The notes: generated by a model not told the origin, from the letters alone. DNA of 63,743 bases from Bacteroidales bacterium (GCA_038247205.1 JBBRVC010000002.1:1-63743); one strand, 5' to 3'; shown: positions 45,207 to 60,389, counted from the stretch's first letter. A program made the numbers and translations.

Positions 45207-45213
45207 AAATTAA

Positions 45214-46059
45214 TTAATAAATCTTAAAATTATTTTCTTTAAGTGCATCATTATATATACCATTTTCCAGAGTCTGAATAAACTCAAATCTTCGGTTATT
45301 CAGAATAACTCTTTTAATATCTTCTATCATATAATCAAAAGGAGCCAGGTTAGATCTTAATCTGTAATCTCTGATAGAAATAAGGTAGACTGCAGCCGAA
45401 TCATTTGTTTCAAAAAAGGTGTTCTGCCGGAGAAAATTCTCTTCATGCTCAATATCCTGTCTTAATTCAATTGTAAGTCGGTCCAGTGTGACCCATTGCT
45501 CATTAAAGTCATCAAATTTTTCAGCAAACTGAAAACAAAAACTTTCAAGTTGTTGAAGGTCTCTCTGGTCATTTGACCGTATAAGTGTCCTTATTTTATC
45601 AATGACCGGTGTTTCGACCGGCAATTTTATGAACAACGCCTTTACAATATTTGATGTAAGTATAAAGCTTTTCTCATTAGAAATATAATAATTCTCAAGT
45701 TCTTCCTCTGAAACAATCGTGTCCATTTTCTCAAGCATCATCTGCCTTTGATACTGATATATAAGTAGGTTAGACCTCGTTTCTTCAATCTGCAGATCTA
45801 TTTCCTTCTTTAAATCAATGGACAGGTTTTCTTCAGCTTTCTGCAATACAAGCTCCTTTTTTGCCCATTTGTTAATATATGTCTGGATAATTCCAATGCT
45901 ATCATTTCCGCGTGATCCACGCTTCATGAGTGGCGGGATTTCATCATAATACAGTGTCACATTTCCAACTTCAGCAACAGGAACCCGTGTATCCTGATTT
46001 TTATAATTGCATCCTGAAAGCACACAAATGGACAAGAAAATAAAGATTGGTCTATTCAT
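45214..46059 (-). CDS. lipoprotein, SurA-N-like / hypothetical
   Basis: Lipobox FLSICVLSGC. No catalytic motif recognised. Confidence 0.4.
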   Translation of the reverse strand: MNRPIFIFLSICVLSGCNYKNQDTRVPVAEVGNVTLYYDEIPPLMKRGSRGNDSIGIIQTYINKWAKKELVLQKAEENLSIDLKKEIDLQIEETRSNLLIYQYQRQMMLEKMDTIVSEEELENYYISNEKSFILTSNIVKALFIKLPVETPVIDKIRTLIRSNDQRDLQQLESFCFQFAEKFDDFNEQWVTLDRLTIELRQDIEHEENFLRQNTFFETNDSAAVYLISIRDYRLRSNLAPFDYMIEDIKRVILNNRRFEFIQTLENGIYNDALKENNFKIY

Positions 46060-48019
46060 CTGTCAATTTCTTTTTCACATGTGTGAGAACCTGATTGTCA
46101 ATTGAAACGGTATATTTTTGCTTTAATTGTCTTATCCACTCCGTCTCAAGTTCATCCTGATATCCTTTCATCATCTCTTCCTGGACCTGCTCATATGGCA
46201 GAGGAGCCGGTTCAAAAACTTTTTTGACAACAATAACAGGAGGATTATTTTCCGATGTGCTGAACACGGTTCCCTTCACCCATTTTATTTTGTCTATCCG
46301 AGGGTCTTCACCTTCAAACCAGGTTCTATCTTCTATCAGTAGCAGGGTATCACCTTTTTTGCTGAATTTATCCATTAACAATTTGTCAGGATCTGATTTC
46401 CGGGAGAGTTTCTTATATGCTGAAATGAGTTTTTTTTCATTACCTGGTGATTTGAGGGAATATATTCTGGCCTCCACAGCCATGGGTGTAAGGTAGTCTT
46501 TTTTATGCCTTTCATAGTAATTTCGAAGACCAATGGAATCTTCGCTCACTTTATCCCAAACATTTCTTTCTGATATATCAAAGAGAAGTATTCCATCGTG
46601 GAATTCATTCATAAGGTATCTGAAGTCGGGATATTTCTTCTCGAGCATTGAATTTTCATAAGCTGTAATATGGTCAGATACTCGTGTATCAATTGATCTG
46701 TCAATAAAGTACTTTGTACTATCAGTTGCAATCATGGGACCTCTTTTTTCAATAAAAGCAGCAAATTCTCTGATTGTAAATCGCTGATCTGCAAATGTGT
46801 ATAAATTGCCTGCGGGCATTGAATCTCTTTTATACTTTGATAAACCCCGCATTATCAGGGTATCGGTCTGACTAATAAACCAGTTATATGCAGGTGTATT
46901 GATTTTAAACTTATATTCCTTTTTAAGCTTTTCAATAAGGGACTTCTTACTTATCGAATTCAGGTATGACTGGTTTATTTTACTATCCAGGAATGATCTG
47001 GCTTCCTCAAATGTGCCGGGTGCTTTTTTGTCGAGAAGCTTAATAATATGCCAGCCATATAAACTTTTGACAGGTCTGGTAAACTGACCGGTATCCTTTA
47101 TTGAGAATGCAGCTTCTGCAAAGTCAGGAATTACCTCGCCTGATCCAAACCAGTTTAGCTTACCTCCATTTACTCCCGATTCTTTATGATCTGAATACTT
47201 TTTGGCAAGCTCAATGAATGATCCACCCTGAGCAAGTTCGTTATAGATGAGGTTCATTTCAGCTTCCGCCGCTTTTGACTCCTTTTCGCCGTTACCCGGT
47301 TGAACGGCCTTCATTATGTGGGCAACCTGGATTCTTCCTCTCGATTGTCTCCTGTCCGTTACTTTAATAATATGATATCCGTATGGAGTTCTTACAAGTT
47401 CCGAGATTGCTCCCTTTTTAAGATTGTATGCTGCATCTTCAAAGGGCATAATCATTTGAAATACTGAGAAATAACCAATATTTCCTCCGTTTGTCACAAC
47501 TGATTTGTCATCAGAAGAGCCTCTGGCCACCTGTTCGAAAGGTTCACCTCCGGCTACTCTTACCCTGATATCATTTGCTTTGGTCCATGCCCTTAGTGTA
47601 TCTTCGGGTGATGCTTCGGGTAAACAAGCAATCAGAATATGCCAGGCATTTATCTCAGTAAGGTATCTCTGATAAGCTTTCGCAAGAACTTCCTCTTTGG
47701 TTTTGGGATCTGTAAGATAATTCTGAGCCAGTTGATTTCTATATCCGTTTAATTCATTTTTGAATGACCTGGTTGTGTCGAGACCTTGTTTTATGGCATC
47801 TGCAACCTTTAGTTTAAATGAGATGAACTGCTGAAGGTATTCATCTATATTAAGTGTCTTCCCCGGTTCAATGCTTTTTTTGTACATCCTGATGAATTCT
47901 CCGGCTTCAGTATTTCTTCCTTCAATTTTCAGAAGAGTTTTGTCATTCACATCCTGTGCCTGGAGCAACTCCGGCAGAAGAAGAATCATGACAATTGTCT
48001 GAAACGATATGAATTTCAT
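46052..48019 (-). CDS. PpiD/SurA-like peptidyl-prolyl isomerase with two parvulin domains
   Basis: Two parvulin blocks (GGNIGYFSVFQM..YGYHIIKVTDR and GGKLNWFGSGEV..YGWHIIKLLDK). I prefer the Met at 48019 (MKFISFQ signal), which avoids overlap with guaB. Confidence 0.75.
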   Translation of the reverse strand: MKFISFQTIVMILLLPELLQAQDVNDKTLLKIEGRNTEAGEFIRMYKKSIEPGKTLNIDEYLQQFISFKLKVADAIKQGLDTTRSFKNELNGYRNQLAQNYLTDPKTKEEVLAKAYQRYLTEINAWHILIACLPEASPEDTLRAWTKANDIRVRVAGGEPFEQVARGSSDDKSVVTNGGNIGYFSVFQMIMPFEDAAYNLKKGAISELVRTPYGYHIIKVTDRRQSRGRIQVAHIMKAVQPGNGEKESKAAEAEMNLIYNELAQGGSFIELAKKYSDHKESGVNGGKLNWFGSGEVIPDFAEAAFSIKDTGQFTRPVKSLYGWHIIKLLDKKAPGTFEEARSFLDSKINQSYLNSISKKSLIEKLKKEYKFKINTPAYNWFISQTDTLIMRGLSKYKRDSMPAGNLYTFADQRFTIREFAAFIEKRGPMIATDSTKYFIDRSIDTRVSDHITAYENSMLEKKYPDFRYLMNEFHDGILLFDISERNVWDKVSEDSIGLRNYYERHKKDYLTPMAVEARIYSLKSPGNEKKLISAYKKLSRKSDPDKLLMDKFSKKGDTLLLIEDRTWFEGEDPRIDKIKWVKGTVFSTSENNPPVIVVKKVFEPAPLPYEQVQEEMMKGYQDELETEWIRQLKQKYTVSIDNQVLTHVKKKLTDE

Positions 48020-48038
48020 CAGGATTAGCTGATACCGG

Positions 48039-49520
48039 TTATTCAAATGACTTTCTGCTGTAATTTGGAGCTTCTCTGGTAATTGTAACATCATGAGGAT
48101 GACTTTCCAGAATTCCTGAATTGGTAATTCTTACAAATTTACCATCTCTTTTCAGTATCAAAATATTTTTAGCGCCCAGATAACCCATTCCGGCCCTTAA
48201 GCCACCCGTCATCTGGTAAATTACTTCTGAAAGTTTTCCTTTGTATGGGACTCTTGCTGCAATACCCTCAGGAACAAGTTTACTTATGTCATCCTCCATA
48301 TCCTGAAAATACCGGTCCTTAGAACCTTGCTGCATAGCCTCAATAGATCCCATGCCCCTGTAGGCTTTAAATTTGCGACCGTTATAAATAATTGTTTCGC
48401 CTGGCGATTCCTCCACCCCGGCAAATAATGATCCTGCCATTATTGAATCGGCACCTGCAGCAATTGCCTTTATTATATCACCTGAGTATCTGATTCCGCC
48501 ATCGGCAATTACAGGTATACCTGACCCCTCTATAGATTTTGAAACATCATAAATAGCAGATAGCTGAGGAACACCGACACCGGCAACTACTCTTGTGGTA
48601 CATATTGATCCCGGACCAATTCCTACTTTTACGGCATCAGCACCTTCATCAACGAGCCTTCTGGCAGCTTCAGCTGTTCCAATATTACCGGCTATCACGT
48701 CAATTGCAGGGTAATTTCTTTTTATCTCTTTTAAAATATTTATAACATTTATAGAGTGTGCATGAGCTGTATCTATTGAGATGGCATCAACGTTTGCATT
48801 AATCAGAGCTTCAACTCTCTTTAGAGTATCCGCCGCTATACCTACCGCACCTGCGACTCTTAATCTGCCTTTATCGTCCTTGCATGAGTTGGGACGATCT
48901 TTTGTTTTGGTAATATCCTTATAGGTAATTAGTCCGATGAGCTTGCCTGCGTCGTCGATCATCGGAAGCTTTTCAATTTTATGTTTCTGAAGAATCCTCG
49001 CTGCTGCCTCGAGGTTTGTCTGGTGGTTGGTAGTGATGAGATTTGTAGTCATCACTTCGGTAATTTTACGGCTGCGGTTATTTTCAAACCTGAGATCCCT
49101 GTTTGTTACAATTCCTTTCAGGATTCCGTTGGTGTCAATAACAGGTATTCCTCCGATCTTGTACTCACTCATCAGATTCATTGCCTCTCCGACGGTCGCA
49201 TCGAGCAGAATGGTTATCGGGTCGAAAATCATCACATTCTCTGCTCTTTTTACCCTCTTAACCTGGGAAGCCTGCTTTTCAATCGACATATTTTTATGGA
49301 TCACTCCTATGCCTCCCTCTCTGGCAATAGCAATTGCAAGTTCATCCTCAGTAACAGTATCCATGGCAGCTGAGACAACCGGTGTATTGATACGGATGTT
49401 TCTTGTGAACATTGAGCTGAGGTCCACTTCGCGGGGAAGTACCTCAGAATATGAAGGAACAAGAAGAACATCATCAAATGTTAGACCTTCATATAATATT
49501 TTATCATTTAAGAATGACAT
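48039..49520 (-). CDS. guaB: IMP dehydrogenase
   Basis: [10 protein letters not shown], a CBS pair, the catalytic loop [11 protein letters not shown], and GGIRYSGD. Confidence 0.95.
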
Positions 49521-49756
49521 TGGATGGAGTATTAGTTTGCTGGCGCAAATTACAAAAAAATCAGGACTCTGAAAATATCTCTAATTTTTACCGGAATACA
49601 CGGCTCAAAGGTCCACTGAGTGCACGATTTATCAATATTAATCTGTATTTGCTCAAAATTCTAAATGACCCTTTAGTGTCATTTAGCCATGCCGGAGTAC
49701 ATCATCATAAGAAATTGAAATACAGTTGTTACATTTGTGGAAGGAGTATACCGGAA

Positions 49757-51667
49757 ATGAATATTGAAGAATACAGGTTGATTTTAACCAGGTATTGGGG
49801 TTTTACATCTTTCAAACCTTTGCAGGAGGATATCATAAGATCTGTAGCGGAAGGAAAGGATTCACTTGGTCTGATGCCAACAGGAGGGGGGAAGTCGCTG
49901 ACATTCCAGGTTCCAGCCCTTGCAAAAGAAGGTATATGCCTGGTGATTACTCCCCTGATCGCACTAATGAAAGACCAGGTAAACAGACTCAATAGTTTGG
50001 AAATTAAGGCTATGGCTATTCATTCAGGCATGTCGGCCGAAGAAATAGATATAACTCTTGAAAACTGTATTTATGGTGAAGTTAAATTTTTATATGTATC
50101 CCCTGAGAGAATTGCGACGAGGCTTTTTCAGGCAAGGGCACCAAAACTAAACCTTTCTCTTGTGGCGATCGATGAAGCTCACTGTATTTCGCAATGGGGA
50201 TATGATTTTCGTCCGTCATATCTTAAGATCATCGCTTTGAGGGATATTATTTCTGAAAAAGTGCCTTTTCTTGCACTTACAGCTACGGCGACACCGTTTG
50301 TGATTGAAGATATAATTCAGAAACTGGGCTTCAGGGAAAAAAATATTTTCAGAACCAGTTTTGCCAGAAAAAATATCTCCTACCTCGTACGCAATGTTGA
50401 GGATAAAGGATCATATCTGATTAATACCCTGCAAAAAATTAAAGGCAGTGGCATCATTTATGTAAGAAGCAGGAAACGGTGCAAAGAAGTTGCAGAACTG
50501 CTTGTGGCAAATGGCATTAATTCAGATTATTATCATGCAGGTTTGCCCGAAGAGGTAAAGGACAAAAAGCAAACATCATGGAGCATTGGAGAAACCAGGG
50601 TGATTGTTGCAACAAACGCGTTCGGGATGGGTATTGACAAAGCCGAAGTGCGATTCGTAATACATTGGGATATACCGGAATCGATTGAGAGTTATTTTCA
50701 GGAAAGCGGACGGGCCGGAAGGGATAACAAACCTGCCTTCGCAGTTCTTTTGTATACCCCGACAGACAAAAAACGATTAAATGATTCTCTAAGGCAGAAA
50801 TTTCCGCCAATAGAAAAGATTAAAGATATATATGAAGCATTATGCAATTTTCTTCAGGTACCCCAGGGATCGGGAAAGGACAATGTATTTGACTTTAATA
50901 TGTCTGAATTCGTATCACGGTACCGGCTTCCTGTGATTGAAACTTACAACAGCCTCTTATTTCTTCAGAGAGAAGGCTACCTCGAATTCACTGAAGAAAT
51001 AAATAATCCCTCAAGGGTGCATTTTGTTGTTGGCCGGGACGATCTTTATAAATTTCAGGTAGCCAATGAGCCTTTTGATGGATTTATTAAGCTTCTTCTG
51101 AGATCTTATTCAGGAATGTTCTCAGAGTTTGTACCCGTTAACGAAGATTTACTTGCTAAGAAATCAGCGATTACCAGAGATGCTGTATATCAATATCTTG
51201 TGAAGCTTTCTGCCATGAATGTAATAAAATTTATTCCGGGTAAAAAAACCGCGCTTGTGATATTTACTGAAGAAAGGCTGGTTAGAAAAGCATTATTAAT
51301 CTCCCCTGATAATTATTTAAAAGTTAAGGAGAAGTATATTGTCAGGCTCAACAGAATGATGGATTATGCTGACAGTACAACAAGATGCAGATCTGTCATG
51401 CTTCTGGATTACTTTGGTGAAGAATCGGAGCGGTGCGGGGTATGTGATGTGTGTCGTGAAAGGAATGAACTTGACCTTAGTAAATATGAATTTGATATCA
51501 TTCTTGAAAAAATAAAAAAGATACTGGAGGAAGACGGCATTGATGCCGGACAACTCGTTAAAATGATGGGTCTCCCTGAGGAAAAAGTAATAAAAGTGGT
51601 GCGCGGGCTGCTGGACCGGGATAAAATTATTCAGGACAAAGATCATAAACTGAGCTGGAAGACCTGA
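49757..51667 (+). CDS. recQ: ATP-dependent DNA helicase RecQ
   Basis: FKPLQEDII, Walker A MPTGGGKS, DEAHCISQWGYDFRP, TATAT, and a zinc-binding CRxxxLLxYFGE...CGVCDVC. I prefer the Met at 49757. The 102-aa upstream extension in the track overlaps guaB. Confidence 0.9.
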   Translation: MNIEEYRLILTRYWGFTSFKPLQEDIIRSVAEGKDSLGLMPTGGGKSLTFQVPALAKEGICLVITPLIALMKDQVNRLNSLEIKAMAIHSGMSAEEIDITLENCIYGEVKFLYVSPERIATRLFQARAPKLNLSLVAIDEAHCISQWGYDFRPSYLKIIALRDIISEKVPFLALTATATPFVIEDIIQKLGFREKNIFRTSFARKNISYLVRNVEDKGSYLINTLQKIKGSGIIYVRSRKRCKEVAELLVANGINSDYYHAGLPEEVKDKKQTSWSIGETRVIVATNAFGMGIDKAEVRFVIHWDIPESIESYFQESGRAGRDNKPAFAVLLYTPTDKKRLNDSLRQKFPPIEKIKDIYEALCNFLQVPQGSGKDNVFDFNMSEFVSRYRLPVIETYNSLLFLQREGYLEFTEEINNPSRVHFVVGRDDLYKFQVANEPFDGFIKLLLRSYSGMFSEFVPVNEDLLAKKSAITRDAVYQYLVKLSAMNVIKFIPGKKTALVIFTEERLVRKALLISPDNYLKVKEKYIVRLNRMMDYADSTTRCRSVMLLDYFGEESERCGVCDVCRERNELDLSKYEFDIILEKIKKILEEDGIDAGQLVKMMGLPEEKVIKVVRGLLDRDKIIQDKDHKLSWKT

Positions 51668-51685
51668 CTGTTAATTAATTAACAG
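51668..51685. repeat. perfect 18-nt AT-rich palindrome directly after the recQ stop
   Basis: CTGTTAATT/AATTAACAG. Possibly a weak terminator hairpin or recognition site. Confidence 0.3.
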
Positions 51686-52059
51686 TATTTTCAAAGACAG
51701 TTTATTACTATCTCCTGCGGCTTTCCTCCATCAAGGGAAACGACGGTGGCTTTTACTTTGCCATTGACAACATCACAATTCTCAACAGCATTGTTACTGT
51801 TTACCATGACCGGAAAACTGTTCAAGAAGGAATTGATACAGATTGTAACACTTCAATAGTGGATGTATGGCACAAATTTTCTTAGTGAAAAGGGTTTGTT
51901 GAAATCGAGTTCGTTTAGTAAGTTTACAGTAGAAAAAATCTTTGTGAAAGAGACCCAAGTTAAAATTTGGCTTTTATTAGGGTTGAAAAATATGTAAGAC
52001 TAAGGGTGGGTTATTAGAGCAAAAGCTTAAGGACATAACTATGCATTTATTCTAATTCG

Positions 52060-52668
52060 ATGTCGACACCAGGGTTACAACATGTGAACAGCGAAAAGAG
52101 CCAAACCATATTTATAAAAAATATGGTTTGTTCATCATGTATCCGGGTGGTTAGGGAGGACCTGACCAAACTGGGTATAACTGTACTCGATGTTAAGCTG
52201 GGCGAAGCAACCATTGTTTACAACCGGGATAAGATAAGTAAACAAGATATAGATCAGGTACTGAATAGTTTTGGGATGGCTCTGATTATAAATAAGGATG
52301 AGCTTTTGGTGGAGCAAATCAAACAAACTGTTATTGAACTGGTTCACCACATGAACAATGTGAATTCAATTGCCCGGAAATCGGAATACCTGGTAGAGAA
52401 GATGGGAAAAAGCTACCAGACACTGTCCAAACTCTTCTCACGATTCGAGACCATAACCCTCGAACGTTACATCATTCTCCAGAAAATAGAACGGGTAAAA
52501 GATCTGGCCATGGAAGACAATATTTCATTGAGTGAAATTGCATGGATGATGGATTACAGCAGTCCAAATCATCTATCCAGCCAATTCAAAATCATCACCG
52601 GCGTTTCCCTGTCCGAATTCAAAAAAAATTCCACAATCCATCGTAAGCCAATCAACAATCTTTACTGA
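52060..52668 (+). CDS. AraC-family transcriptional regulator with N-terminal heavy-metal-associated (HMA)-like domain
   Basis: N-terminal IFIKNMVCSSCIRVVREDLTKLGI...GEATIVY resembles the ferredoxin-like HMA fold with an MxCxxC motif. The C-terminus carries an AraC HTH (SLSEIAWMMDYSSPNHLSSQFKIITGVSLSEFKK). Confidence 0.75.
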   Translation: MSTPGLQHVNSEKSQTIFIKNMVCSSCIRVVREDLTKLGITVLDVKLGEATIVYNRDKISKQDIDQVLNSFGMALIINKDELLVEQIKQTVIELVHHMNNVNSIARKSEYLVEKMGKSYQTLSKLFSRFETITLERYIILQKIERVKDLAMEDNISLSEIAWMMDYSSPNHLSSQFKIITGVSLSEFKKNSTIHRKPINNLY

Positions 52669-52675
52669 TTACCGT

Positions 52676-52698
52676 ATTTTGTAAATCATTTACAAAAT
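52676..52698. promoter_or_regulatory. 11-1-11 perfect palindrome (candidate operator or weak terminator) between regulator and operon
   Basis: ATTTTGTAAAT-C-ATTTACAAAAT, 8 nt after the AraC stop. A TAnnTTTG-like Bacteroidota -7 element (TATTTTTG, 52727-52734) lies about 22 nt upstream of the next ATG. Confidence 0.4.
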
Positions 52699-52755
52699 CA
52701 TATAGCACTTCCTTTTCGCTCTATATTATTTTTGTATTCATAAAAACTAATTGAG

Positions 52756-53019
52756 ATGAAAATAACTGACGAAGTAAGAATAAGCGACAATGGTTTCGTT
52801 TTTAATTCGAATACTGGCGATTCGTTCAATGTCAATGCAACCGGGCTTGAGCTAACAAAGCTGATTGCCCAGGGTCACGACTTTGAATCCATCAAAGCCA
52901 AATTTCTGGCGAAATACGATATCGACGACCTGTCTTTTGAAAAAGACTTCTATGAGTTCTGTGCATTGATTAAGCACCATCAACTCACCACAACCGAAGA
53001 TCCACTTGATTTCAAATAA
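52756..53019 (+). CDS. PqqD-family (RRE-like) small protein
   Basis: 87 aa. FVFNSNTGDSFNVNATGLELTKLIAQGHDFESIKAKFLAKYDIDDLSFEKDFYEFCALIKHHQL matches the PqqD consensus layout (N.tG..f.LN.tG..i...l..G.s...i...l...Y.v....l..D...F...L...gL). Confidence 0.7.
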   Translation: MKITDEVRISDNGFVFNSNTGDSFNVNATGLELTKLIAQGHDFESIKAKFLAKYDIDDLSFEKDFYEFCALIKHHQLTTTEDPLDFK

Positions 53020-53026
53020 GTCAACC

Positions 53027-54067
53027 ATGATAAAATTAACAGTAGCTGTTACCGGGCTCAACAACACGGATAATCCGGGGCCTGGCGTACCGGTAATCCG
53101 ATCGTTAAAAGAATCGACCGAATTTGAGCTAAGGATTATCGGGTTGGTTTACGAAACCCTTGAACCGGGGATTTATATGGAAGGATTATGCGATAAGATA
53201 TTCCAGATTCCCTATCCATCAGCAGGTTCCAACGAATTAATCGACCGCATTGAGGCCATCCACAACATGGATCCCATTGATGTAATCATTCCCAATTTCG
53301 ATTCTGAACTCTATTCGTTTATGAAAAGCGAGGAGCGTTTACGTAAATGTGGCATACACACTTTTCTGCCTACCATAAAGCAATTTCAGGAGCGGGATAA
53401 AGACCAGCTACCCGAATATGGTGAAAAATATGGCATCAAAGTGCCGGCAAGTTTAAACCTTGGCAGCCATAACCAAATATCAGAAATTAAAGAGAAATTT
53501 GAGTATCCTGTAATGGTGAAGGGTAAGTTTTACGATGCATACATAGCTTACAACACTGAACAGGTGAAGCAGGCCTTCAATAAGATTTCGTCAAAATGGG
53601 GATTGCCCGTTATCATTCAGAAATTTGTGAAAGGTACCGAGGTTAATGTGGTTGCACTGGGCGATGGTCAGGGGAATACTATTGCAGCCGTGCCCATGCG
53701 CAAGCAATACATTACCGATAAAGGTAAGGCCTGGGGCGGTATCACTTTATCAGACGAGAAAATGCTTGCTATTACGCGGGGTTTGATTCGTAAAACCAGA
53801 TGGAAAGGTGGCATGGAGCTAGAAATGATTAAAACAGTTGCCGGTGAGTATTACCTCATTGAGATTAATCCCCGCATCCCTGCTTGGGTTTATTTGGCTG
53901 TTGGTGCCGGACAAAATATTCCCGAAGCCCTTGTGAAACTGGCGTTGGGTCTTGAGGTAGCTCCTATGGAATCGTACAAATCGGGAAAAATGTTTGTGCG
54001 TTATTCATACGACATTATTGTTGACCTCGAGAAGTTTGAAAGTATTGCAATGAATGGAGAAATTTAA
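53027..54067 (+). CDS. ATP-grasp family ligase
   Basis: YPVMVKGK (ATP Lys), IIQKFVKGTEVNV (hinge), and GGMELEMIK...YYLIEINPRIP (Mg/ATP-binding E..E.N). I prefer the ATG at 53027, 7 nt after the upstream stop. Confidence 0.8.
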   Translation: MIKLTVAVTGLNNTDNPGPGVPVIRSLKESTEFELRIIGLVYETLEPGIYMEGLCDKIFQIPYPSAGSNELIDRIEAIHNMDPIDVIIPNFDSELYSFMKSEERLRKCGIHTFLPTIKQFQERDKDQLPEYGEKYGIKVPASLNLGSHNQISEIKEKFEYPVMVKGKFYDAYIAYNTEQVKQAFNKISSKWGLPVIIQKFVKGTEVNVVALGDGQGNTIAAVPMRKQYITDKGKAWGGITLSDEKMLAITRGLIRKTRWKGGMELEMIKTVAGEYYLIEINPRIPAWVYLAVGAGQNIPEALVKLALGLEVAPMESYKSGKMFVRYSYDIIVDLEKFESIAMNGEI

Positions 54068-54080
54068 TAACCAATGTATT

Positions 54081-55424
54081 ATGGAAAATATTAAATACGA
54101 AAAACCAACCATCAATAAAATTAATGCAGGTATGCCCAGCAAATTCGGTATGCCTGTAAAACAGAGAATCATTTCAGAAATCGATGGATTTAATGTTACA
54201 TCGTTGATCGAAGAGTATGGCTCGCCCTTGTTTGTGGTTTCTGAAAAAACCATTCGAGATGTATATACCGAGGCAAAACGTGCTTTCGAAACGAGGTATC
54301 CAAAAGTGCAATTTGCATGGTCGTATAAAACCAATTATCTCGATGCAATTTGCAGTATTTATCATAACGAAGGTTCTTGGGCTGAAGTTGTTTCGGGTTT
54401 CGAATTCGAGAAAGCACTTTCGTTAGGGGTTAACGGCACGCAAATCCTATTCAATGGACCCGATAAATCGGAGGCCGATCTGACCATGGCCATCGAACAT
54501 AATGCTTGCATACACATCGACCATTTTGATGAGCTTTATCAACTGATTGAGATAACGCGAAAAATGCAGAAAAAAGCAAGGGTAGCCATTCGCATCAATT
54601 TGGATGCAGGGATTTATCCCATCTGGGACCGATTTGGTTTCAACTATGAAAATGGCGATGCTTGGAACGCCATCAACAGGATTATGCTGACCGATAGTCT
54701 TGAATTAATTGGATTGCATACCCACATTGGAACATACATTATGGCTCAGTCTGCATATGCCATTGCCGCGTCAAAGTTGGCAAACCTTTATATGGCCATT
54801 CATCGCAAATTCGACTATTGGTTAAAGTACATCGATTTGGGCGGTGGTTTTGCTTCAAAAAATACATTAAAAGGGGCATATATGCCCGGTTCCGAAACCT
54901 GTCCGTCGTTCGATGAATATGCCGAAGCCATCTCTAATGCGCTCATTTCATCCGAAATTCCACACGAAAATTTACCGGTGCTTTTTCTCGAAACCGGAAG
55001 GGCATTAATCGATGATGCCGGGTATTTGCTCACCACAGTGATTGCCAACAAACGGTTGAATGGAGGCAGGCGCTCCATGGTGATCGATGCCGGAATTAAT
55101 TTGCTGTTTACCTCGTTCTGGTATAACCTTGGGATTTATCCGTCGAAAGAGATTTCAGGACATTCCGAAGAGTCGACTATTTATGGACCGTTGTGCATGA
55201 ATATCGATGTTATCCGCGATGCCATTGTTTTTCCACAGGTGAAACCCGGTGATCAACTGGTTGTTGAGCGTGTAGGTGCTTACAATATGACGCAATGGAT
55301 GCAGTTTATTAAATATCGACCCAATGTGGTTTTGATTGATATGGATGGTAAAGCGCACATTATCCGAAAAAAGGAGAGCCTCGAAACTTTCAAAAAGATG
55401 GAGCTAAATCCAAAATTAGAGTAA
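54081..55424 (+). CDS. fold-III (Orn/DAP/Arg-type) PLP-dependent decarboxylase
   Basis: Hallmark motifs in order: FAWSYKTNY (PLP Lys), LHTHIGT, YIDLGGGF, LFLETGRAL (EPGR-like), and GPLCMNIDV (C...D). The start is 54081, or 54054 if it overlaps the upstream gene. Confidence 0.85.
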   Translation: MENIKYEKPTINKINAGMPSKFGMPVKQRIISEIDGFNVTSLIEEYGSPLFVVSEKTIRDVYTEAKRAFETRYPKVQFAWSYKTNYLDAICSIYHNEGSWAEVVSGFEFEKALSLGVNGTQILFNGPDKSEADLTMAIEHNACIHIDHFDELYQLIEITRKMQKKARVAIRINLDAGIYPIWDRFGFNYENGDAWNAINRIMLTDSLELIGLHTHIGTYIMAQSAYAIAASKLANLYMAIHRKFDYWLKYIDLGGGFASKNTLKGAYMPGSETCPSFDEYAEAISNALISSEIPHENLPVLFLETGRALIDDAGYLLTTVIANKRLNGGRRSMVIDAGINLLFTSFWYNLGIYPSKEISGHSEESTIYGPLCMNIDVIRDAIVFPQVKPGDQLVVERVGAYNMTQWMQFIKYRPNVVLIDMDGKAHIIRKKESLETFKKMELNPKLE

Positions 55425-55434
55425 ATAAGCAGGT

Positions 55435-57657
55435 ATGGGTAATATCATAAAAAAGTTGGGCGATGAAGCTCTCTCTTCTGTGTTGAACAGCTACTCACAG
55501 GTCTTTTTTTCCACATCGAAAGTGTTGGCCTTATGCCTGCTATTTATCAGTTTTTTCGATTATGGAGCTGGCATTGGCGGATTTATTGCAGTGGTAATTG
55601 CCAACTTATTGGCTCATTTTCTGGGTTACAATGCCTATTTTAGAAAGGCGGGGCTTTACGGTTTCAACAGTTTGTTGGTGGGATTAGGGGTAGGCTTGAT
55701 ATTTCAATCTTCCTTTGAACTTTACATACTTATTGCCATTGCAACAACCACTTGTTTTTTCCTTACCATTGTTTTTCAGGGAGTGCTCGGAAAATATGGG
55801 CTTCCTTTTTTAAGCATACCCTTTTTAATTACCATATGGATCATCACTTTATCGGTTGACCAACTAACTTCCCTGAATATTAGCGAACGGGGAATTTACA
55901 CCTACAATGAACTTTACGGACTCGGCGGTCATGTAATGGTTAGCTTGTATAACTGGTTAGATAAGTTTGTGACCTCTTCATTTATACGGATTTATTTTTA
56001 TTCACTTGGAGCCATATTTTTTCAAAAGGGATTGCTTGCCGGGATCATTATTTCGTTTGGAATTTTGATCTATTCGCGAATTACCTTCGTGCTTTCAATA
56101 TTGGGCTATTCGGTGTCGTATCTCTTTTATGTATTGGTTGGGATCGAATTTAACTCGTTGAGCTATACTTTTATAGGATTCAATTATATTCTGACTGCGA
56201 TTGCGTTGGGGGGCTATTACTTAATTCCGGGACGAATCAGTTACGCATGGATTATCATACTTTTACCATCGGTTGTATTGGTCACAATCAGTGCACAACA
56301 GATTTTTTATCAGTTCCATATTTCGCCCTATTCGCTTCCGTTTAACATGGTGGTGTTGATGTTCATTTATGCGTTAAAACTTCGTGAGAAAAGACCCAAA
56401 GGTTTGCTCGAAACACCTGTGCAGTTGGGCAATCCCGAGAGAAACCTCTACCTGCAATCGGGCAATATGAAACGATTCCCGACAAAATATGCGGTTTCGG
56501 CTTCGCTGCCTTTTTTTGGCGAATGGGAAGTTAGCCAGGGACATAAAGGTGAGATTACGCATAAAGGGGCCTGGCAAAATGCCTGGGATTTTATTGTTAC
56601 CGATAAAGATGGCAGGCAGTATAAAGGAAGTGGCGATTATCCTGAAGATTATTATTGCTTTGGGAAAGTAATTGTAGCTCCTTATGATGGCACTGTGATT
56701 GAAATTGTGAATTCCATACCCGACAACAGCATTGGCGATGTGGATACCAAAAATAATTGGGGTAATACAATCATCATAAAACATGGTTTCGATATTTATT
56801 CGAAATTGTGCCATCTGAAATACCACTCTATCGAAGTTAAGGTAGGCGATAATGTTAAACAGGGACAATTGCTCGGAAAATGTGGCAACTCAGGTCGATC
56901 ACCTTATCCACATCTGCACTTTCAGTTTCAGTCAACACCATACATTGGCTCTCCAACCATCGATTATCCATTTGGCCATTATCTGCTAAGGGGTGAAAAA
57001 TACACTTTCAAAACGTTTTCATTTCCACAAAAAGGCGATGTAGTGGCCAATCCGGTTAAAAATGTGATGTTGGCAAATGTGATGCATTTTACGCCAGGAC
57101 AAAAAATTTGTGGCGAATTTCAGGTTACATCGATTAAAACCGGATTGAAGATACACGAAGAGTACTTCAAATGGAGAGTTGATACTGATGTGTTCAATTC
57201 AACCTATTTCGAATGTGAAGAGGATAAGTCGATTGCATACTTGTACAATAATGGCAACTTGCACTATTTTACTAATTTTACAGGGAAAAGAGAGTCGCCT
57301 TTGTATTGGTTTTTTCTAGCCTTTATTAAAGTTCCTCTTGGATTTTTACCCAATAGCAACATTCATGATCAAGTACCTCTAAATTTGTTGTTTGGCGGTC
57401 TGTTGAAGTTTATTCAGGATTTTGTTGCCCCGTTGTTCCTTTTTCTGAAGGTCAATTACCGGCTTGAAATCAAAGAGGCAGGCGACATCCTTTCGTCGGG
57501 CGATTTGAAGATGGTTGCCGAAATCTCAAAGAAGATTGCGGGCAGGGAGACAGATAAATATCTTTTCGATATTGGGATTAATGAAAATGGGGTTTTTGAA
57601 ATTGAAATTCTAACAGGAGAGCTTAAAATCAATTTAAAATGTCGAAACGAATCGTAA
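55435..57657 (+). CDS. fusion protein: urea-transporter (UT)-like polytopic channel, M23 metallopeptidase domain, and an unassigned ~240-aa C-terminal domain
   Basis: aa ~10-320 form ~9-10 TM helices with UT-family motifs (NSYSQVFFS, GLYGFNSLLVGLG). aa ~355-500 form M23 (THKGAWQNAWDF, then GNSGRSPYPHLHFQ with HxH). I recognise nothing in aa 501-740. Confidence 0.75.
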   Translation: MGNIIKKLGDEALSSVLNSYSQVFFSTSKVLALCLLFISFFDYGAGIGGFIAVVIANLLAHFLGYNAYFRKAGLYGFNSLLVGLGVGLIFQSSFELYILIAIATTTCFFLTIVFQGVLGKYGLPFLSIPFLITIWIITLSVDQLTSLNISERGIYTYNELYGLGGHVMVSLYNWLDKFVTSSFIRIYFYSLGAIFFQKGLLAGIIISFGILIYSRITFVLSILGYSVSYLFYVLVGIEFNSLSYTFIGFNYILTAIALGGYYLIPGRISYAWIIILLPSVVLVTISAQQIFYQFHISPYSLPFNMVVLMFIYALKLREKRPKGLLETPVQLGNPERNLYLQSGNMKRFPTKYAVSASLPFFGEWEVSQGHKGEITHKGAWQNAWDFIVTDKDGRQYKGSGDYPEDYYCFGKVIVAPYDGTVIEIVNSIPDNSIGDVDTKNNWGNTIIIKHGFDIYSKLCHLKYHSIEVKVGDNVKQGQLLGKCGNSGRSPYPHLHFQFQSTPYIGSPTIDYPFGHYLLRGEKYTFKTFSFPQKGDVVANPVKNVMLANVMHFTPGQKICGEFQVTSIKTGLKIHEEYFKWRVDTDVFNSTYFECEEDKSIAYLYNNGNLHYFTNFTGKRESPLYWFFLAFIKVPLGFLPNSNIHDQVPLNLLFGGLLKFIQDFVAPLFLFLKVNYRLEIKEAGDILSSGDLKMVAEISKKIAGRETDKYLFDIGINENGVFEIEILTGELKINLKCRNES

Positions 57658-58973
57658 TGATATGTGCTTTGGTTGGCTTATTTACAACCATTGTGGCGCA
57701 AGGAAAATTAAATATTGAGGAAGTTGACAAATATTCGTACCAGCTATACCAGGAAGAAAAATGGGATGAATTGATCAAATACTCACAGGAATCAATGGAG
57801 CAGGGGATCGATTTTTTTTATCTCAGGGCAAGAACCGGAATTGCATGGTACAACCTGGGGAAATATAGAAATGCTTCTACCTGGTTTATTCGGGCTGGTG
57901 AAAACGATCTTTCGGCTGACTGGCTGCAGGAATATTTGTACTATAGCCTTATTTTTAGCGGGCGAACATTGGATGCCAACAAATATGCATCTTCTTTTTC
58001 AGATGCCACGACAAAGAAAATTGGCTTTAAACGGGCAGCAGTCACTAATTTGACTTATGAAACCGGATACAGTTTTAATACCGATTTTGATGATTTGAAA
58101 ATACGTGATTTTAAATCTGAAGCGAACCTCGGCGACGATTATGGCGAGGCGTATTTGCTTAAAAATTACATATTCCATTCGTTCGATCTTTTTCATCGAA
58201 TTGCACCAAATTTCACATTGCAGCACAACCTTACCTACATCGGGGTAAACCGTGAAACGCTGGTTGATTGGGTGACACAAACCACATCGCCTGTTCAGGT
58301 GAAGGAGTTGCAGTATTATGTTAGCCCTGTTTGTGTGATTGGCAAACGACTGAATGTTTCAACCTCATTGAATTATATATTAGGAAATGCCGATGTTTAT
58401 GCCGGGTCATTAAATTCAAATTTGGATAAGGTCTATACCGTTTCAAAGTCAAAATATAGCGATTATTTAGTCTCATCTTCGGTTTGGTCTCATTTGGGCA
58501 ACCTGTCATATGGCGTTGAGATCAACGGTGGTGACATAAGCAATTCCAGATTCTATCAGGTTTCGGGTTGGGGTACCTGGTATCCGCTTTCGAACTTAAA
58601 TCTCTATTTTACGCCCAGAATTTACTTTAAATCTGACAACGATATCAATAGTTTTGCTTTTAAAGCCATGGGCATTTCGGGTGGGGCGCAATTGGGTCAA
58701 TTCCATCTTTATGGGCAATATTTGTTTGGCGATATGGAAAACTTTGTTGAGTCGGCCGGATCTGTTATTGCCAATTACCCTGGCCGATCGGATTGGAAAC
58801 TGATGGGGAGTCTCTATTTTCCATTTTCTAAAAGATATCAATTTGTGTTGCGTTACATCAATCAGAATATTATTGAAGAATATCAGGTTTATACAGCAGG
58901 GGAGAAAAGTAATTCACTAGAATATAGCTACTTGAAAAATACATTAACAGGAGGAATATCATGGACATTTTAA
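57639..58973 (+). CDS. outer-membrane beta-barrel protein with N-terminal helical (TPR-like) region
   Basis: Signal peptide MSKRIVMICALVGLFTTIVAQ, a helical ~100 aa, then long runs of alternating amphipathic strands. The terminus is the OMP-type GGISWTF. The start overlaps the upstream stop by 19 nt. Confidence 0.5.
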   Translation: MSKRIVMICALVGLFTTIVAQGKLNIEEVDKYSYQLYQEEKWDELIKYSQESMEQGIDFFYLRARTGIAWYNLGKYRNASTWFIRAGENDLSADWLQEYLYYSLIFSGRTLDANKYASSFSDATTKKIGFKRAAVTNLTYETGYSFNTDFDDLKIRDFKSEANLGDDYGEAYLLKNYIFHSFDLFHRIAPNFTLQHNLTYIGVNRETLVDWVTQTTSPVQVKELQYYVSPVCVIGKRLNVSTSLNYILGNADVYAGSLNSNLDKVYTVSKSKYSDYLVSSSVWSHLGNLSYGVEINGGDISNSRFYQVSGWGTWYPLSNLNLYFTPRIYFKSDNDINSFAFKAMGISGGAQLGQFHLYGQYLFGDMENFVESAGSVIANYPGRSDWKLMGSLYFPFSKRYQFVLRYINQNIIEEYQVYTAGEKSNSLEYSYLKNTLTGGISWTF

Positions 58974-59584
58974 AAAGGATTTTATTTGTAGTTGGATTTT
59001 GTTTGGTTGTGAACTCAGGATTCACACAATCAAACCAAGCTTCATTGCAAGCTGCATTTTTGAAAAGTTATACATTTGAAAAAAGTGGTGATTTCAGTGC
59101 ATCGATGAATGCTTTGAAAAACGTATACGACGAATCATCGTATGAATTGAATCTTAGGTTGGGATGGCTGAATTACAATGCTGGATTATTCGACGAATCG
59201 GTCATTTTTTACAAAAAGACACAGAAGCTTAAACCTTATTCGGAGGAAGCTCGGTTTGGATTGATACTACCACTTTCGGCCCTGGGTAAATGGAACGAAG
59301 TAATTAATATTTACGACGAAATCCTTCAATTAAGCCCAAATAACACGGTTGCTATTTACCGGCTGGGACTTGTATATTATGGACGCAAGGAGTATGACAA
59401 AGCCAATTCACTATTTAATAAGGTGGTCGATTTATATCCGTTTGGTTATGATGGGTTATTGATGTTGGGATGGACATCTTATTTTCTGGGTAATTCAAAC
59501 CAGGCCAGGATACTTTTTAATAAAGTACTCCTTTATAACCCTGGCGATAAATCGGCAACGGAGGGATTGAGCTTACTCAAATAA
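58961..59584 (+). CDS. secreted tetratricopeptide-repeat protein
   Basis: Signal peptide (FVVGFCLVVNSGFTQ). At least four TPR-like units (e.g. A..YRLGLVYYGRKEYDKANSLFNKVVDLYP). The start overlaps the upstream stop by 13 nt. Confidence 0.75.
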   Translation: MDILKRILFVVGFCLVVNSGFTQSNQASLQAAFLKSYTFEKSGDFSASMNALKNVYDESSYELNLRLGWLNYNAGLFDESVIFYKKTQKLKPYSEEARFGLILPLSALGKWNEVINIYDEILQLSPNNTVAIYRLGLVYYGRKEYDKANSLFNKVVDLYPFGYDGLLMLGWTSYFLGNSNQARILFNKVLLYNPGDKSATEGLSLLK

Positions 59585-59633
59585 ATAATCAAAACAGAAT
59601 GATAAAGAGAAATGTTTTTACTAGTTATTCATC

Positions 59634-59798
59634 TTACTTCCGCCTAATACCTGAATTAATTTCAATTTTTGAATTACCTGAAATAATTGAAAAAGTGCTG
59701 TCAGTTCGTACGGCCTGAGATTGTCCTGCAATATTATTGCATATACCTGATAATCCGGAAATAATGAGGATGAAGGTTGTTAGTATTTGAAATCTCAT
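59634..59798 (-). CDS. small hypothetical secreted peptide (54 aa from the internal Met)
   Basis: MRFQILTTFILIISGLSGICNN looks like a signal peptide, followed by ~30 polar residues. No homology recognised. Coding status uncertain. Confidence 0.3.
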   Translation of the reverse strand: MRFQILTTFILIISGLSGICNNIAGQSQAVRTDSTFSIISGNSKIEINSGIRRK

Positions 59799-59857
59799 CT
59801 TAAAATTTAATTTAATACCAAAGTACAACCTGTTTTTGTGTCATTTTCAAATTAAAA

Positions 59858-59901
59858 TCAATGAGTGAGGGAGTGTTTATTGAACTTCCCTCTCTCATTG
59901 A
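59858..59901 (-). terminator. long imperfect hairpin downstream of the SusD remnant
   Basis: TCAATGAGTGAGGGAG-loop-CTTCCCTCTCTCATTGA (about 14 Watson-Crick pairs plus 1 wobble pair and one mismatch), followed on the minus strand by a T-rich run. Confidence 0.55.
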
Positions 59902-59915
59902 TGAGTTTAAAGATA

Positions 59916-60329
59916 TTAGTTATAACCAGGGTTTTGCAAAAGCCCGGGGATTAAATCTACCTCAGTTTGTGGTTTAGGTAATAACTTATTATATTCGGCA
60001 ACATAAGGATAAAGGGCTATATTAGCAGACACAACTTGTTCTTTACGAACAAGGTCAAACCATCTTTTACATTCAAATGCCAATTCCCATTCGCGTTCTT
60101 TTATAACTGCAGCATCAAAATCAGCTTTTGACATTCCTGATGGAAGATCAGGATAAACAGCGGGATTGAAGCCGCCAGCTCTTCTTCTTACTTTATTAAG
60201 AGCCTCAAGTGCTTCTGCTGAAGGAGCTCCTTCTGCCATGTTTGCTGCTTCAGCATAGATTAATAATACCTCTGCATATCTGTTTATTGGGAAGAATCCA
60301 TCTCCACCGCCCTTTAATCGATTTTTCAT
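59916..60329 (-). pseudogene. RagB/SusD-family nutrient-binding lipoprotein, C-terminal ~135-aa remnant only
   Basis: YAEVLLIYAEAANM..., ALNKVRRRAG, REREWELAFECKRWFDLVR and a terminal LLQNPGYN form the conserved SusD C-terminus. Full-length SusD proteins are roughly 450-600 aa with a lipoprotein signal. Here the ORF begins 3 nt after a terminator hairpin, and no SusC gene is present. Confidence 0.75.
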
Positions 60330-60332
60330 AAA

Positions 60333-60370
60333 AAAAGGGGAATACCCGATTCAACAGGCATTCCCCTTTT
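60333..60370. terminator. strong hairpin terminator after the DUF362-propeller gene
   Basis: AAAAGGGGAAT-loop-ATTCCCCTTTT (11-bp stem, with A- and T-runs forming its outer base pairs). Lies between the stop at 60390 and the SusD-remnant start at 60329. Confidence 0.65.
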
Positions 60371-60389
60371 ATAAACTTAAATTAAATTT

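Follow-up and report, generated by a model that had tools for sequence, protein, structure and literature searches.

A 63,743-nucleotide stretch of DNA from a Bacteroidales bacterium (GCA_038247205.1 JBBRVC010000002.1:1-63743), referred to here as the window, carries at positions 52756-55424 genes for a small PqqD-like protein, an ATP-grasp ligase and a pyridoxal 5'-phosphate (PLP)-dependent decarboxylase. All three open reading frames (ORFs) were found on the plus strand, in the order reported in a first-pass annotation of the window, which had proposed that the small protein acts as a covalent carrier for amino-acid chemistry. Analysis of the locus and its relatives indicates that the small protein is a RiPP recognition element (RRE; RiPP, a peptide synthesized on the ribosome and modified post-translationally) which most likely binds a leader-like tail on the decarboxylase. 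The features of this region are as follows.

52756-53019, plus strand: PqqD/RRE protein, 87 amino acids (aa)
52834-52836, plus strand: N27, universal proline-clamp residue of the RRE
52945-52947, plus strand: D64, RRE residue covarying with the decarboxylase tail
52957-52959, plus strand: F68, universal proline-clamp residue of the RRE
53027-54067, plus strand: ATP-grasp ligase, 346 aa; the mechanically called ORF opens at TTG 53006
54054-55424, plus strand: alanine-racemase-fold PLP decarboxylase of the FigC/BtrK/LysA clade
54087-54149, plus strand: leader-like N-terminal tail of the decarboxylase, K12-x-x-Y15-E-K-P18-T-I20-x-K22...G26-M-P-S-K30-F-G32

The true start of the ATP-grasp gene is probably ATG 53027, as its homologues are 346-348 aa long, and this leaves a 7-nt gap after the PqqD stop codon. 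The decarboxylase likely begins at ATG 54081 (a position obtained by arithmetic from the start of the mechanical ORF), since M10 aligns with the first residue of most homologues; 13 nt then separate it from the ATP-grasp stop codon. The near-abutting arrangement described earlier was thus confirmed, as was the lack of a precursor peptide gene inside the operon. Clustering of all non-overlapped small ORFs (15-110 aa) from 83 loci returned only the PqqD gene and antisense shadow ORFs, in a blastp-based search that covered 10 kb on either side and is insensitive to peptides shorter than 30 aa. Intergenic ORFs of the distant loci, listed manually, included nothing conserved, and neither a B2 peptidase nor a lasso cyclase was present among the genes of any locus surveyed. 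The view of the triad as a functional unit was upheld by synteny across phyla and by two natural fusion proteins, one joining PqqD to ATP-grasp (P0337) and the other joining ATP-grasp to the decarboxylase (P0287).

The small protein matched the PqqD Pfam model at 23.7 bits against a cut-off of 23.4. Its AlphaFold2 (AF2) model consists of three strands (residues 7-9, 14-17 and 22-25) followed by three helices (28-38, 43-53 and 58-74), with the last 12 residues predicted to be disordered. Foldseek aligned this beta3-alpha3 model to the leader complexes of the lasso peptide proteins TbiB1 and TfuB1 with a template modelling (TM) score of 0.75. A profile built from RREs of several phyla matched TbiB1 (1.6e-14), TfuB1 (8e-12), PbaB1 (6e-7) and LppB (3e-4), while true PqqD was matched at only 2e-3. 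Judged by its predicted fold and by its family sequence, the 87-aa protein is a discrete RRE of the lasso B1 type. Only four residues, F16, G21, N27 and F68, were invariant across all lineages (78 Bacteroidota and 6 distant RREs). In the crystal structure of LppB (PMC13381572) the leader-motif proline is clamped by N33 and F74, to which N27 and F68 correspond in the alignment; Y54, L72, L77 and L26 align with LppB Y60, M78, L83 and L32, respectively. No invariant Lys, Cys, Ser or acidic residue was found outside the RRE core in these 84 homologues, so that the proposal of a covalent carrier gained no support. The C-terminal P-L-D-F tail is limited to the window's own clade, other clades having short, variable and often acidic tails; the final residue may be K, V, N, E, D, S, A, G, Q or Y, and some homologues stop directly after helix 3 or carry unrelated C-terminal residues.

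Since no precursor gene was present, a ligand for the RRE was sought inside the operon. Alignments showed that the decarboxylase has an N-terminal extension of approximately 38 residues that is absent from FigC and LysA, and the segment of this tail bearing Y15, P18 and I20 reads MENIKYEKPTINKINAGMPSKFG. The tail consensus is K-x-x-[YF]-E-[RK]-P-x-I-x-[KR]-[IL]-x-x-G-[MV]-P-x-K-F-G. Discrete lasso RREs recognise [Y/W]xxPx[L/V/I/F/A] (PMC13381572, PMC6784204, PMC10368454), and the tail motif matches the corresponding lasso-leader pattern, YxxPxL. The form [YF]xxPx[ILMV] was found in 76 of 78 decarboxylase N-termini, compared with 6.6% expected in shuffled tails, and in 73 of the 78 it lies at a fixed distance from the catalytic domain. 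When all six frames of the 63.7-kb window were searched for [YFW]E[RKP]Px[ILMV], the only matches were the decarboxylase tail and one random 21-codon ORF. It was also observed that Y15 and G32 are 17 residues apart, the same distance as that from Tyr(-17) to core position +1 in lasso precursors.

The leader Tyr is held by a hydrogen bond to D70 of LppB, and PbaB1 has Q79 at the equivalent position (PMC13381572). RRE residue 64 aligns with both of these residues, which hydrogen-bond the leader Tyr or Trp (the LppB-to-window numbering was checked on 11 residues), and was therefore expected to track the presence of Tyr or Phe at tail position 15. This expectation held at every locus compared: a tail Tyr was paired with D, N, E or H at residue 64 in 39 loci and a tail Phe with Y, S, F or L in the other 39, with no exceptions among the 78. 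Within the RRE, no column carried as much mutual information as column 64 (1.0 bit; the runner-up had 0.58), and tail position 15 ranked first among the approximately 1,540 columns that the decarboxylase, ATP-grasp and UT-M23 proteins contribute together (0.997 bit; next, 0.72), the UT-M23 protein being the product of the following gene, a urea transporter (UT)-family protein fused to an M23 domain. Residue 64 and position 15 are thus a reciprocal best pair. On neighbour-joining trees of either the decarboxylase core or the ATP-grasp protein, each character switched at least five times, and the switches always coincided. We take these results as strong, if indirect, evidence that the decarboxylase tail is most likely bound by the RRE with the geometry seen for bound leaders. 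In comparison with the lasso B1 RREs (TbiB1, TfuB1/FusB1 and PbaB1) and LppB, which are its closest relatives in sequence and share its fold, its proline-clamp Asn and Phe, the hydrogen-bonding position at residue 64 and a candidate ligand of the form [YF]-x-x-P-x-[ILMV], the RRE of the window differs in that the putative ligand is the N-terminal tail of an enzyme and not a precursor peptide. The cassette also lacks a B2 peptidase, a lasso cyclase and a kinase, the partners here being an ATP-grasp protein and a PLP decarboxylase.

The decarboxylase matched the Pfam models Orn_Arg_deC_N (1.4e-29) and Orn_DAP_Arg_deC (1.5e-13). The hallmark motifs noted in the first-pass annotation are present and conserved in 73 homologues: K92 within SYKTNY, HTHIGT, GGGF, ETGR, C381...D385 and GAYN. 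K92 is the PLP lysine, and the pocket, mapped by pairwise alignment to FigC and with the FigC structure paper (PMC7857480), contains T353, W356, Y357, C381-M-N-I-D385, Q414, W415 and M416. These pocket residues are invariant in the 73 Bacteroidota homologues, and the motifs CMNID and TQWMQF were also read by eye in the distant fusion P0287. The closest solved relative is FigC/FslC (7KH2; 3e-62), followed by LysA (1e-37), BtrK (1.3e-26) and SbnH (8e-13). Several specific identities were considered and rejected: LysA (TIGR01048, 227.1 bits against a cut-off of 297.9), an FslC/FigC orthologue (NF041039, 243.9 bits against 500), a BtrK orthologue, as the enzyme is far nearer to FigC and LysA, and ornithine decarboxylase (ODC)/SpeC, on the basis of scores and of a pocket in which the ODC specificity residues are absent. 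It had been suggested that the enzyme might turn out to be a plain LysA or SpeC orthologue; with scores below the cut-offs and the specificity residues missing, it proved to be neither.

The Arg that binds the distal carboxylate in LysA (R343 in Methanocaldococcus jannaschii numbering) is replaced by T353, as it is in FigC, and the Cys loop reads C381-M-N-I-D, compared with C-M-Q-H-D in FigC and C-E-S/T-G-D in LysA. T353, Y357 and M382 align with FigC T327, Y331 and M355, whereas the FigC citrate ligands T330, H357, R387 and N389 correspond to W356, I384, Q414 and M416. FigC is an N-citrylornithine decarboxylase, which acts on amide-tethered ornithine (PMC7857480). By sequence the enzyme of the window is a member of the clade that acts on side-chain-tethered amino acids, with a fixed and more hydrophobic distal pocket of its own, and the open, hydrophobic character of that pocket (W356, I384, Q414, W415 and M416) suggests an aliphatic or neutral tether and not citrate. 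The earlier expectation of a tethered substrate therefore stands in so far as the non-LysA members of the clade, which include FigC/FslC, SbnH, BtrK and MccE, act on side-chain-tethered residues, but BtrK is not the nearest model for it. Because the triad appears to be a functional unit, the decarboxylase falls in a tethered-substrate clade and the LysA and ODC specificity residues are absent, a pathway in which ligation is followed by decarboxylation is reasonable by analogy.

The ATP-grasp protein matched ATPgrasp_Ter, ATP-grasp_3 and CPSase_L_D2, and belongs to the "carbamoyl-phosphate-synthase-like" PRK12767 group. Its ATP- and Mg-binding residues are invariant in the homologues, and its AF2 model had a predicted local distance difference test (pLDDT) score of 92.5. 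By Foldseek the nearest structure was the uncharacterised 2PN1, followed by biotin carboxylases, carbamoyl-phosphate synthetase (CPS), PurK and L-amino-acid ligases, so that the structural neighbours, generic after 2PN1, gave no hint of the substrate. A LysX/RimK identity was rejected (TIGR00768 rimK_fam, 16.7 bits against 143.4), and neither protein was among the top 50 Foldseek neighbours; the comparison drawn in the first-pass annotation with a LysX-like ligase was not borne out.

Three further conserved genes follow the triad with small overlaps or gaps, extending to position 59584 and giving a cassette of six genes in all.

55435-57657, plus strand: 740-aa protein with a UT membrane domain (residues ~14-314), an M23 domain (~360-500) and a C-terminal region of ~240 aa
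57639-58973, plus strand: secreted 444-aa protein with a signal peptide, an N-terminal tetratricopeptide repeat (TPR) region, a C-terminal part of ~320 aa and a W-x-F end
58961-59584, plus strand: secreted TPR protein of 207 aa, whose gene closes the conserved cassette; matches TPR families and has a signal-peptide-like N-terminus

The 740-aa protein matched the UT family at 1.3e-54 (PF03253, 185.8 bits over positions 2-291 of 292) and M23 at 1.7e-16. The M23 ligands H376, D385, H493 and H495 and the UT motifs LPxxSxPF and LPFN were conserved in at least 95% of 60 sequences. The equivalog model for the bacterial urea transporter Yut was rejected as an identity (TIGR03441, 117.9 bits against a cut-off of 274.6). 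Orthologous UT fusions elsewhere bear SIR2, or SIR2 and GNAT, in place of M23, with the sirtuin NAD, catalytic His and zinc motifs intact; no description of a UT-sirtuin architecture was found. Such fusions, with or without GNAT, are located as follows.

Locus L084, 7233-9344: UT fused to SIR2 with or without GNAT
Locus L085, 13541-15229: the same type of fusion
Locus L087, 13541-15256: the same type of fusion
Locus L088, 13695-15761: the same type of fusion

NAD and acetyl-CoA are cytoplasmic, and since SIR2 and GNAT require them, the domain following UT would lie in the cytoplasm; by homology of position the M23 domain of the window is probably cytoplasmic as well. M23 and SIR2 cleave amides and GNAT forms them, which by analogy suits unhindered amides on primary alkyl amines, the type of bond in the reaction proposed below. 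The 444-aa protein had no Pfam match, its family profile matched TPR proteins over residues ~37-120, and its C-terminal part may resemble an outer-membrane barrel.

Homologues are abundant in Bacteroidota, the closest ATP-grasp proteins (89% identical) coming from metagenome-assembled genomes of Prolixibacteraceae, to which the window probably belongs as well. In 80 related Bacteroidota loci the order of the six genes was the same in essentially every case in which the contig was long enough, and in 55 loci the UT-M23 gene was followed by those for the 444-aa and 207-aa proteins. Representatives clustered at 50% identity were searched exhaustively and gave 230 ATP-grasp clusters below 1e-30, among them the fusions P0337 and P0287, and at least 596 relatives were present among 600 pattern matches listed from a collection of species-representative genomes. 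The four-gene core was found in Bacteroidota, Myxococcota, Methylomirabilota and Nitrospinota; Terriglobales appear among the source names as well. Six distant neighbourhoods were compared, from Myxococcales, Rokubacteria, Nitrospinota and two unassigned loci. In Myxococcales and one unassigned locus the layout is PqqD, ATP-grasp, decarboxylase and UT-M23, followed by TPR or other secreted proteins; in Rokubacteria and Nitrospinota a secreted TPR protein precedes PqqD, a tandem double ATP-grasp, the decarboxylase and UT-SIR2. The third layout opens with a large secreted TPR protein and a PqqD that is either free or fused; next come ATP-grasp, a paralogue of it that scores 1e-50 against the family profile, the decarboxylase and UT-SIR2-GNAT. 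Common to all is thus a core made up of an RRE, one or two ATP-grasp proteins, the decarboxylase and a UT-family protein, and secreted TPR proteins accompany it in five of the six distant loci as well as in the Bacteroidota cassette. A gene order kept throughout the Bacteroidota loci and in four other lineages is far beyond chance. No published description of this combination of genes was found in the literature, and no curated family model exists for the system. When a plasmid collection was searched with the fusion protein, only generic decarboxylases were recovered, and no annotated plasmid-borne relative; no relevant riboswitch or other RNA was found in window positions 51500-60500 or in the six distant loci. 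A role in anti-phage defence was rejected, as none of the six cassette proteins matched PADLOC models.

With little more than even confidence, we lean towards a complex scaffolded by the RRE, in which docking on the decarboxylase tail is coupled to ligation and then decarboxylation, followed by processing and export of the product. The RRE groove would bind Y15-E-K-P18-T-I20 at the decarboxylase N-terminus in the way that lasso and LPP RREs bind YxxPxL leaders. The RRE would be a docking subunit and not a covalent carrier, and it probably holds the ligase and the decarboxylase together, because RRE::ATP-grasp and ATP-grasp::decarboxylase fusions occur. The ATP-grasp enzyme would form an amide in which an alpha-amino-acid head group stays free, and the FigC-like decarboxylase would then strip the alpha-carboxylate to give an aminoalkyl amide. 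The cytoplasmic domain fused to UT (M23 here; SIR2 or SIR2 with GNAT elsewhere) would cleave or edit an amide on the primary alkyl amine, while passage through the envelope, presumably outwards, would fall to the UT domain together with the secreted TPR proteins and the barrel-like protein.

Several points weigh against this proposal. Shared ancestry can inflate covariation between linked genes, and the count of coincident switches was made on simple neighbour-joining trees. The loci of Rokubacteria and Nitrospinota (type B; L085 and L087) carry a shifted motif, Y-E-P-M-x-L, and the conserved tail could instead be a lid over the decarboxylase active site. The modelled ATP-grasp structure has the bicarbonate-activating biotin carboxylases, CPS and PurK among its neighbours, so that amide ligation is not certain, and the role of UT, as well as that of M23 as opposed to SIR2, is read from the identity of the domains.

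Among the other explanations, that of the first-pass annotation would have the PqqD-like protein loaded by the ATP-grasp enzyme and the tethered residue decarboxylated, with a hydrolase releasing the product. The disordered and often acidic C-terminal tail of the small protein would suit this role, the decarboxylase clade includes BtrK, which acts on carrier-tethered Glu, and a hydrolase domain (M23 or SIR2) is on hand. We nevertheless consider it highly improbable: no attachment residue is conserved, the PLDF tail being specific to one clade, the residues that are invariant throughout the family are those of the RRE core and proline clamp, the enzyme pockets are invariant while the supposed tether varies, and the ATP-grasp protein is not of the LysX/RimK type. 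A carrier might instead be built into the decarboxylase itself, its tail serving as leader and core. K30, fifteen residues beyond Y15 (+15), would be presented by the RRE and acylated by the ATP-grasp enzyme with the side-chain carboxyl of Glu or Asp; decarboxylation would follow in cis or in trans, SIR2 or M23 would free the omega-amino acyl unit for export by way of UT and the TPR and barrel-like proteins, and repeated rounds could possibly build an unbranched oligoamide. By RRE logic, the segment that follows the leader motif is delivered to the partner enzyme, and position +15 is basic throughout (K in 75 of the 80 tails aligned, with some of the other rows out of register). SIR2 and GNAT are directed at lysine and M23 cuts unhindered amides, the hydrophobic distal pocket would accept a Lys side chain, and the spacing from Y15 to G32 is that from lasso Y(-17) to the core. 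However, the fusion P0287 has Arg at +15, which suggests an electrostatic and not a nucleophilic role, K30 lies just ~7 residues ahead of the conserved fold, and stoichiometric self-modification of an enzyme has no obvious payoff unless chains are built. This idea is unlikely, although if true it would mean that a lasso-type RRE guides amino-acid chemistry which is self-templated and tethered to an enzyme.

An orphan RiPP pathway, in which the RRE binds the YxxPxL leader of a precursor encoded elsewhere in the genome, would account for the intact leader cleft of the lasso-type RRE and for partner domains that act on peptides (M23, SIR2, GNAT and TPR), and microcin C biosynthesis offers a precedent in its clade-2 decarboxylase, MccE. 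The ATP-grasp enzyme would add an amino acid to the peptide and the decarboxylase would convert it into an amine cap, M23 would remove the leader, and UT together with the TPR and barrel-like proteins would carry out export. Yet neither the 83 loci, searched to 10 kb on either side, nor the distant loci yielded a conserved small ORF (the clustering being weak for peptides shorter than 30 aa), the perfect covariation with the decarboxylase tail already accounts for the RRE ligand, and enzyme identities of 60-89% across genera are unusual for RiPP tailoring enzymes; this explanation we regard as rather unlikely. Very little probability is given to the possibility that the ATP-grasp protein is a carboxylase-type enzyme (of the biotin carboxylase, CPS or PurK kind) acting in nitrogen scavenging on urea or a small nitrogen compound supplied through UT. 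Biotin carboxylases, CPS and PurK are among the top structural neighbours, some lineages have tandem double ATP-grasps as CPS does, the UT domain is always present, and regulators of the sigma-54/NtrC type, GlnD and glutamine synthetase are encoded near several distant loci. Against this, L-amino-acid ligases are equally close in structure, there is no biotin carrier or amidotransferase partner, the nitrogen-related neighbours are not conserved across loci, and the FigC-like decarboxylase, with its extended pocket, and the RRE would be left without a role.

The RRE-scaffolded complex that we favour has partial counterparts in several known systems. In rhizoferrin biosynthesis by FigA/FigC (FslA/FslC), ornithine is ligated through its side-chain amine and then decarboxylated (PMC7857480). 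The same logic is proposed for the cassette, whose decarboxylase shares the T and Y of the specificity helix and the Met next to the catalytic Cys, but the ligase here is an ATP-grasp protein where rhizoferrin uses an NRPS-independent siderophore (NIS) synthetase, the citrate-binding residues are changed to Ile, Gln, Trp and Met, and the rhizoferrin pathway has no RRE, UT fusion or TPR partners. The parallel with BtrI/BtrJ/BtrK drawn in the first-pass annotation holds in part: there an ATP-grasp enzyme ligates through a side-chain carboxyl before alpha-decarboxylation by an enzyme of the LysA clade, a sequence that the reaction proposed here would resemble, BtrK is a detectable homologue, and the ligate-then-decarboxylate logic remains reasonable. 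It fails for the small protein, which has a PqqD fold, is not an acyl carrier protein (ACP) and has no conserved attachment residue, as well as for the decarboxylase, which is nearer to FigC. BtrI also has 87 aa, and this likeness to the RRE in length is regarded as a coincidence. The resemblance to LysW/LysX is formal only, consisting of a small protein, an ATP-grasp enzyme, downstream enzymes and a releasing hydrolase; the cassette has neither a zinc-ribbon fold nor a conserved C-terminal motif like EDWGE, and its ATP-grasp protein is of another type. Synthase-dependent export sets (PgaA, BcsC, AlgK/AlgE) combine TPR and outer-membrane barrel components. The cassette is similar in that secreted TPR proteins and a TPR protein with a putative barrel follow an inner-membrane component, and differs in that no glycosyltransferase is present and the inner-membrane part is a protein of the urea-transporter family.

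RREs are taken to signal a ribosomal peptide pathway, and genome mining makes use of them. What is new here is that a lasso-type RRE appears to have been re-used for a leader-like tail on an enzyme. If this is true, it would explain why "orphan" RREs of at least one class lack a precursor peptide, and the leader-RRE interaction could serve as a general device for docking proteins. The product could be a new envelope-associated or secreted amine or amide compound of sediment and soil bacteria, and the covariation supplies specific point mutants with which the docking can be tested.

The cassette is preceded in the window by a gene for a putative regulator.

52060-52668, plus strand: AraC-type regulator with an N-terminal HMA-like domain (NMVCSSC, CxxC); HTH_18 match at 2e-12 and a weak HMA match

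In about 24-30 of the 80 related loci, or roughly a third, a homologue of this regulator is encoded immediately upstream of PqqD. A link to metals through the HMA domain was dropped from consideration, as the Cys pair varies (CxxC, xxCC or lost) and metal sensing is therefore not universal. In 19 Prolixibacteraceae loci (for example, L001 5754-9657 and L003 17841-20802) the cassette often adjoins stress-type genes, namely DUF2202 (ferritin-like), an extracytoplasmic function (ECF) sigma/zf-HC2 anti-sigma pair, Metal_resist and DUF4405, a possible sign of a connection with envelope or metal stress. In one Mariniphaga locus (L017, 10001-11029) no PqqD, decarboxylase or UT gene could be detected next to the ATP-grasp homologue (73% identity), which may represent a relocated or remnant copy. 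In distant lineages the cassette has histidine kinases, sigma-54 (NtrC-type) activators, GlnD or glutamine synthetase as neighbours, which may indicate nitrogen-related regulation; these neighbours are located as follows.

Locus L085, 6553-7992 and 21716-22136: neighbours of this kind
Locus L087, 4579-7424: neighbours of this kind
Locus L088, 15826-17169: neighbours of this kind
Locus L089, 4823-8392: neighbours of this kind

Directly downstream of the cassette in the window, a 137-aa ORF on the minus strand (59916-60329) matches SusD/RagB in the C-terminal half of the profile alone (positions 150-297) and is probably a gene fragment or a mis-started gene. On the other side, two consecutive genes for PPIC-type peptidyl-prolyl isomerases, a SurA-like protein of 453 aa and one of 680 aa, occupy 43845-48094 on the minus strand, with a 281-aa ORF that has no Pfam match between them. 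They are followed by an IMP dehydrogenase gene (48039-49520, minus strand), read from its translation only, and by a divergent ORF at 49451-51667 on the plus strand whose translation reads as a RecQ-like helicase. This last ORF starts approximately 70 nt inside the IMP dehydrogenase gene and has a long N-terminal extension, so that the true start of the helicase is probably further downstream.

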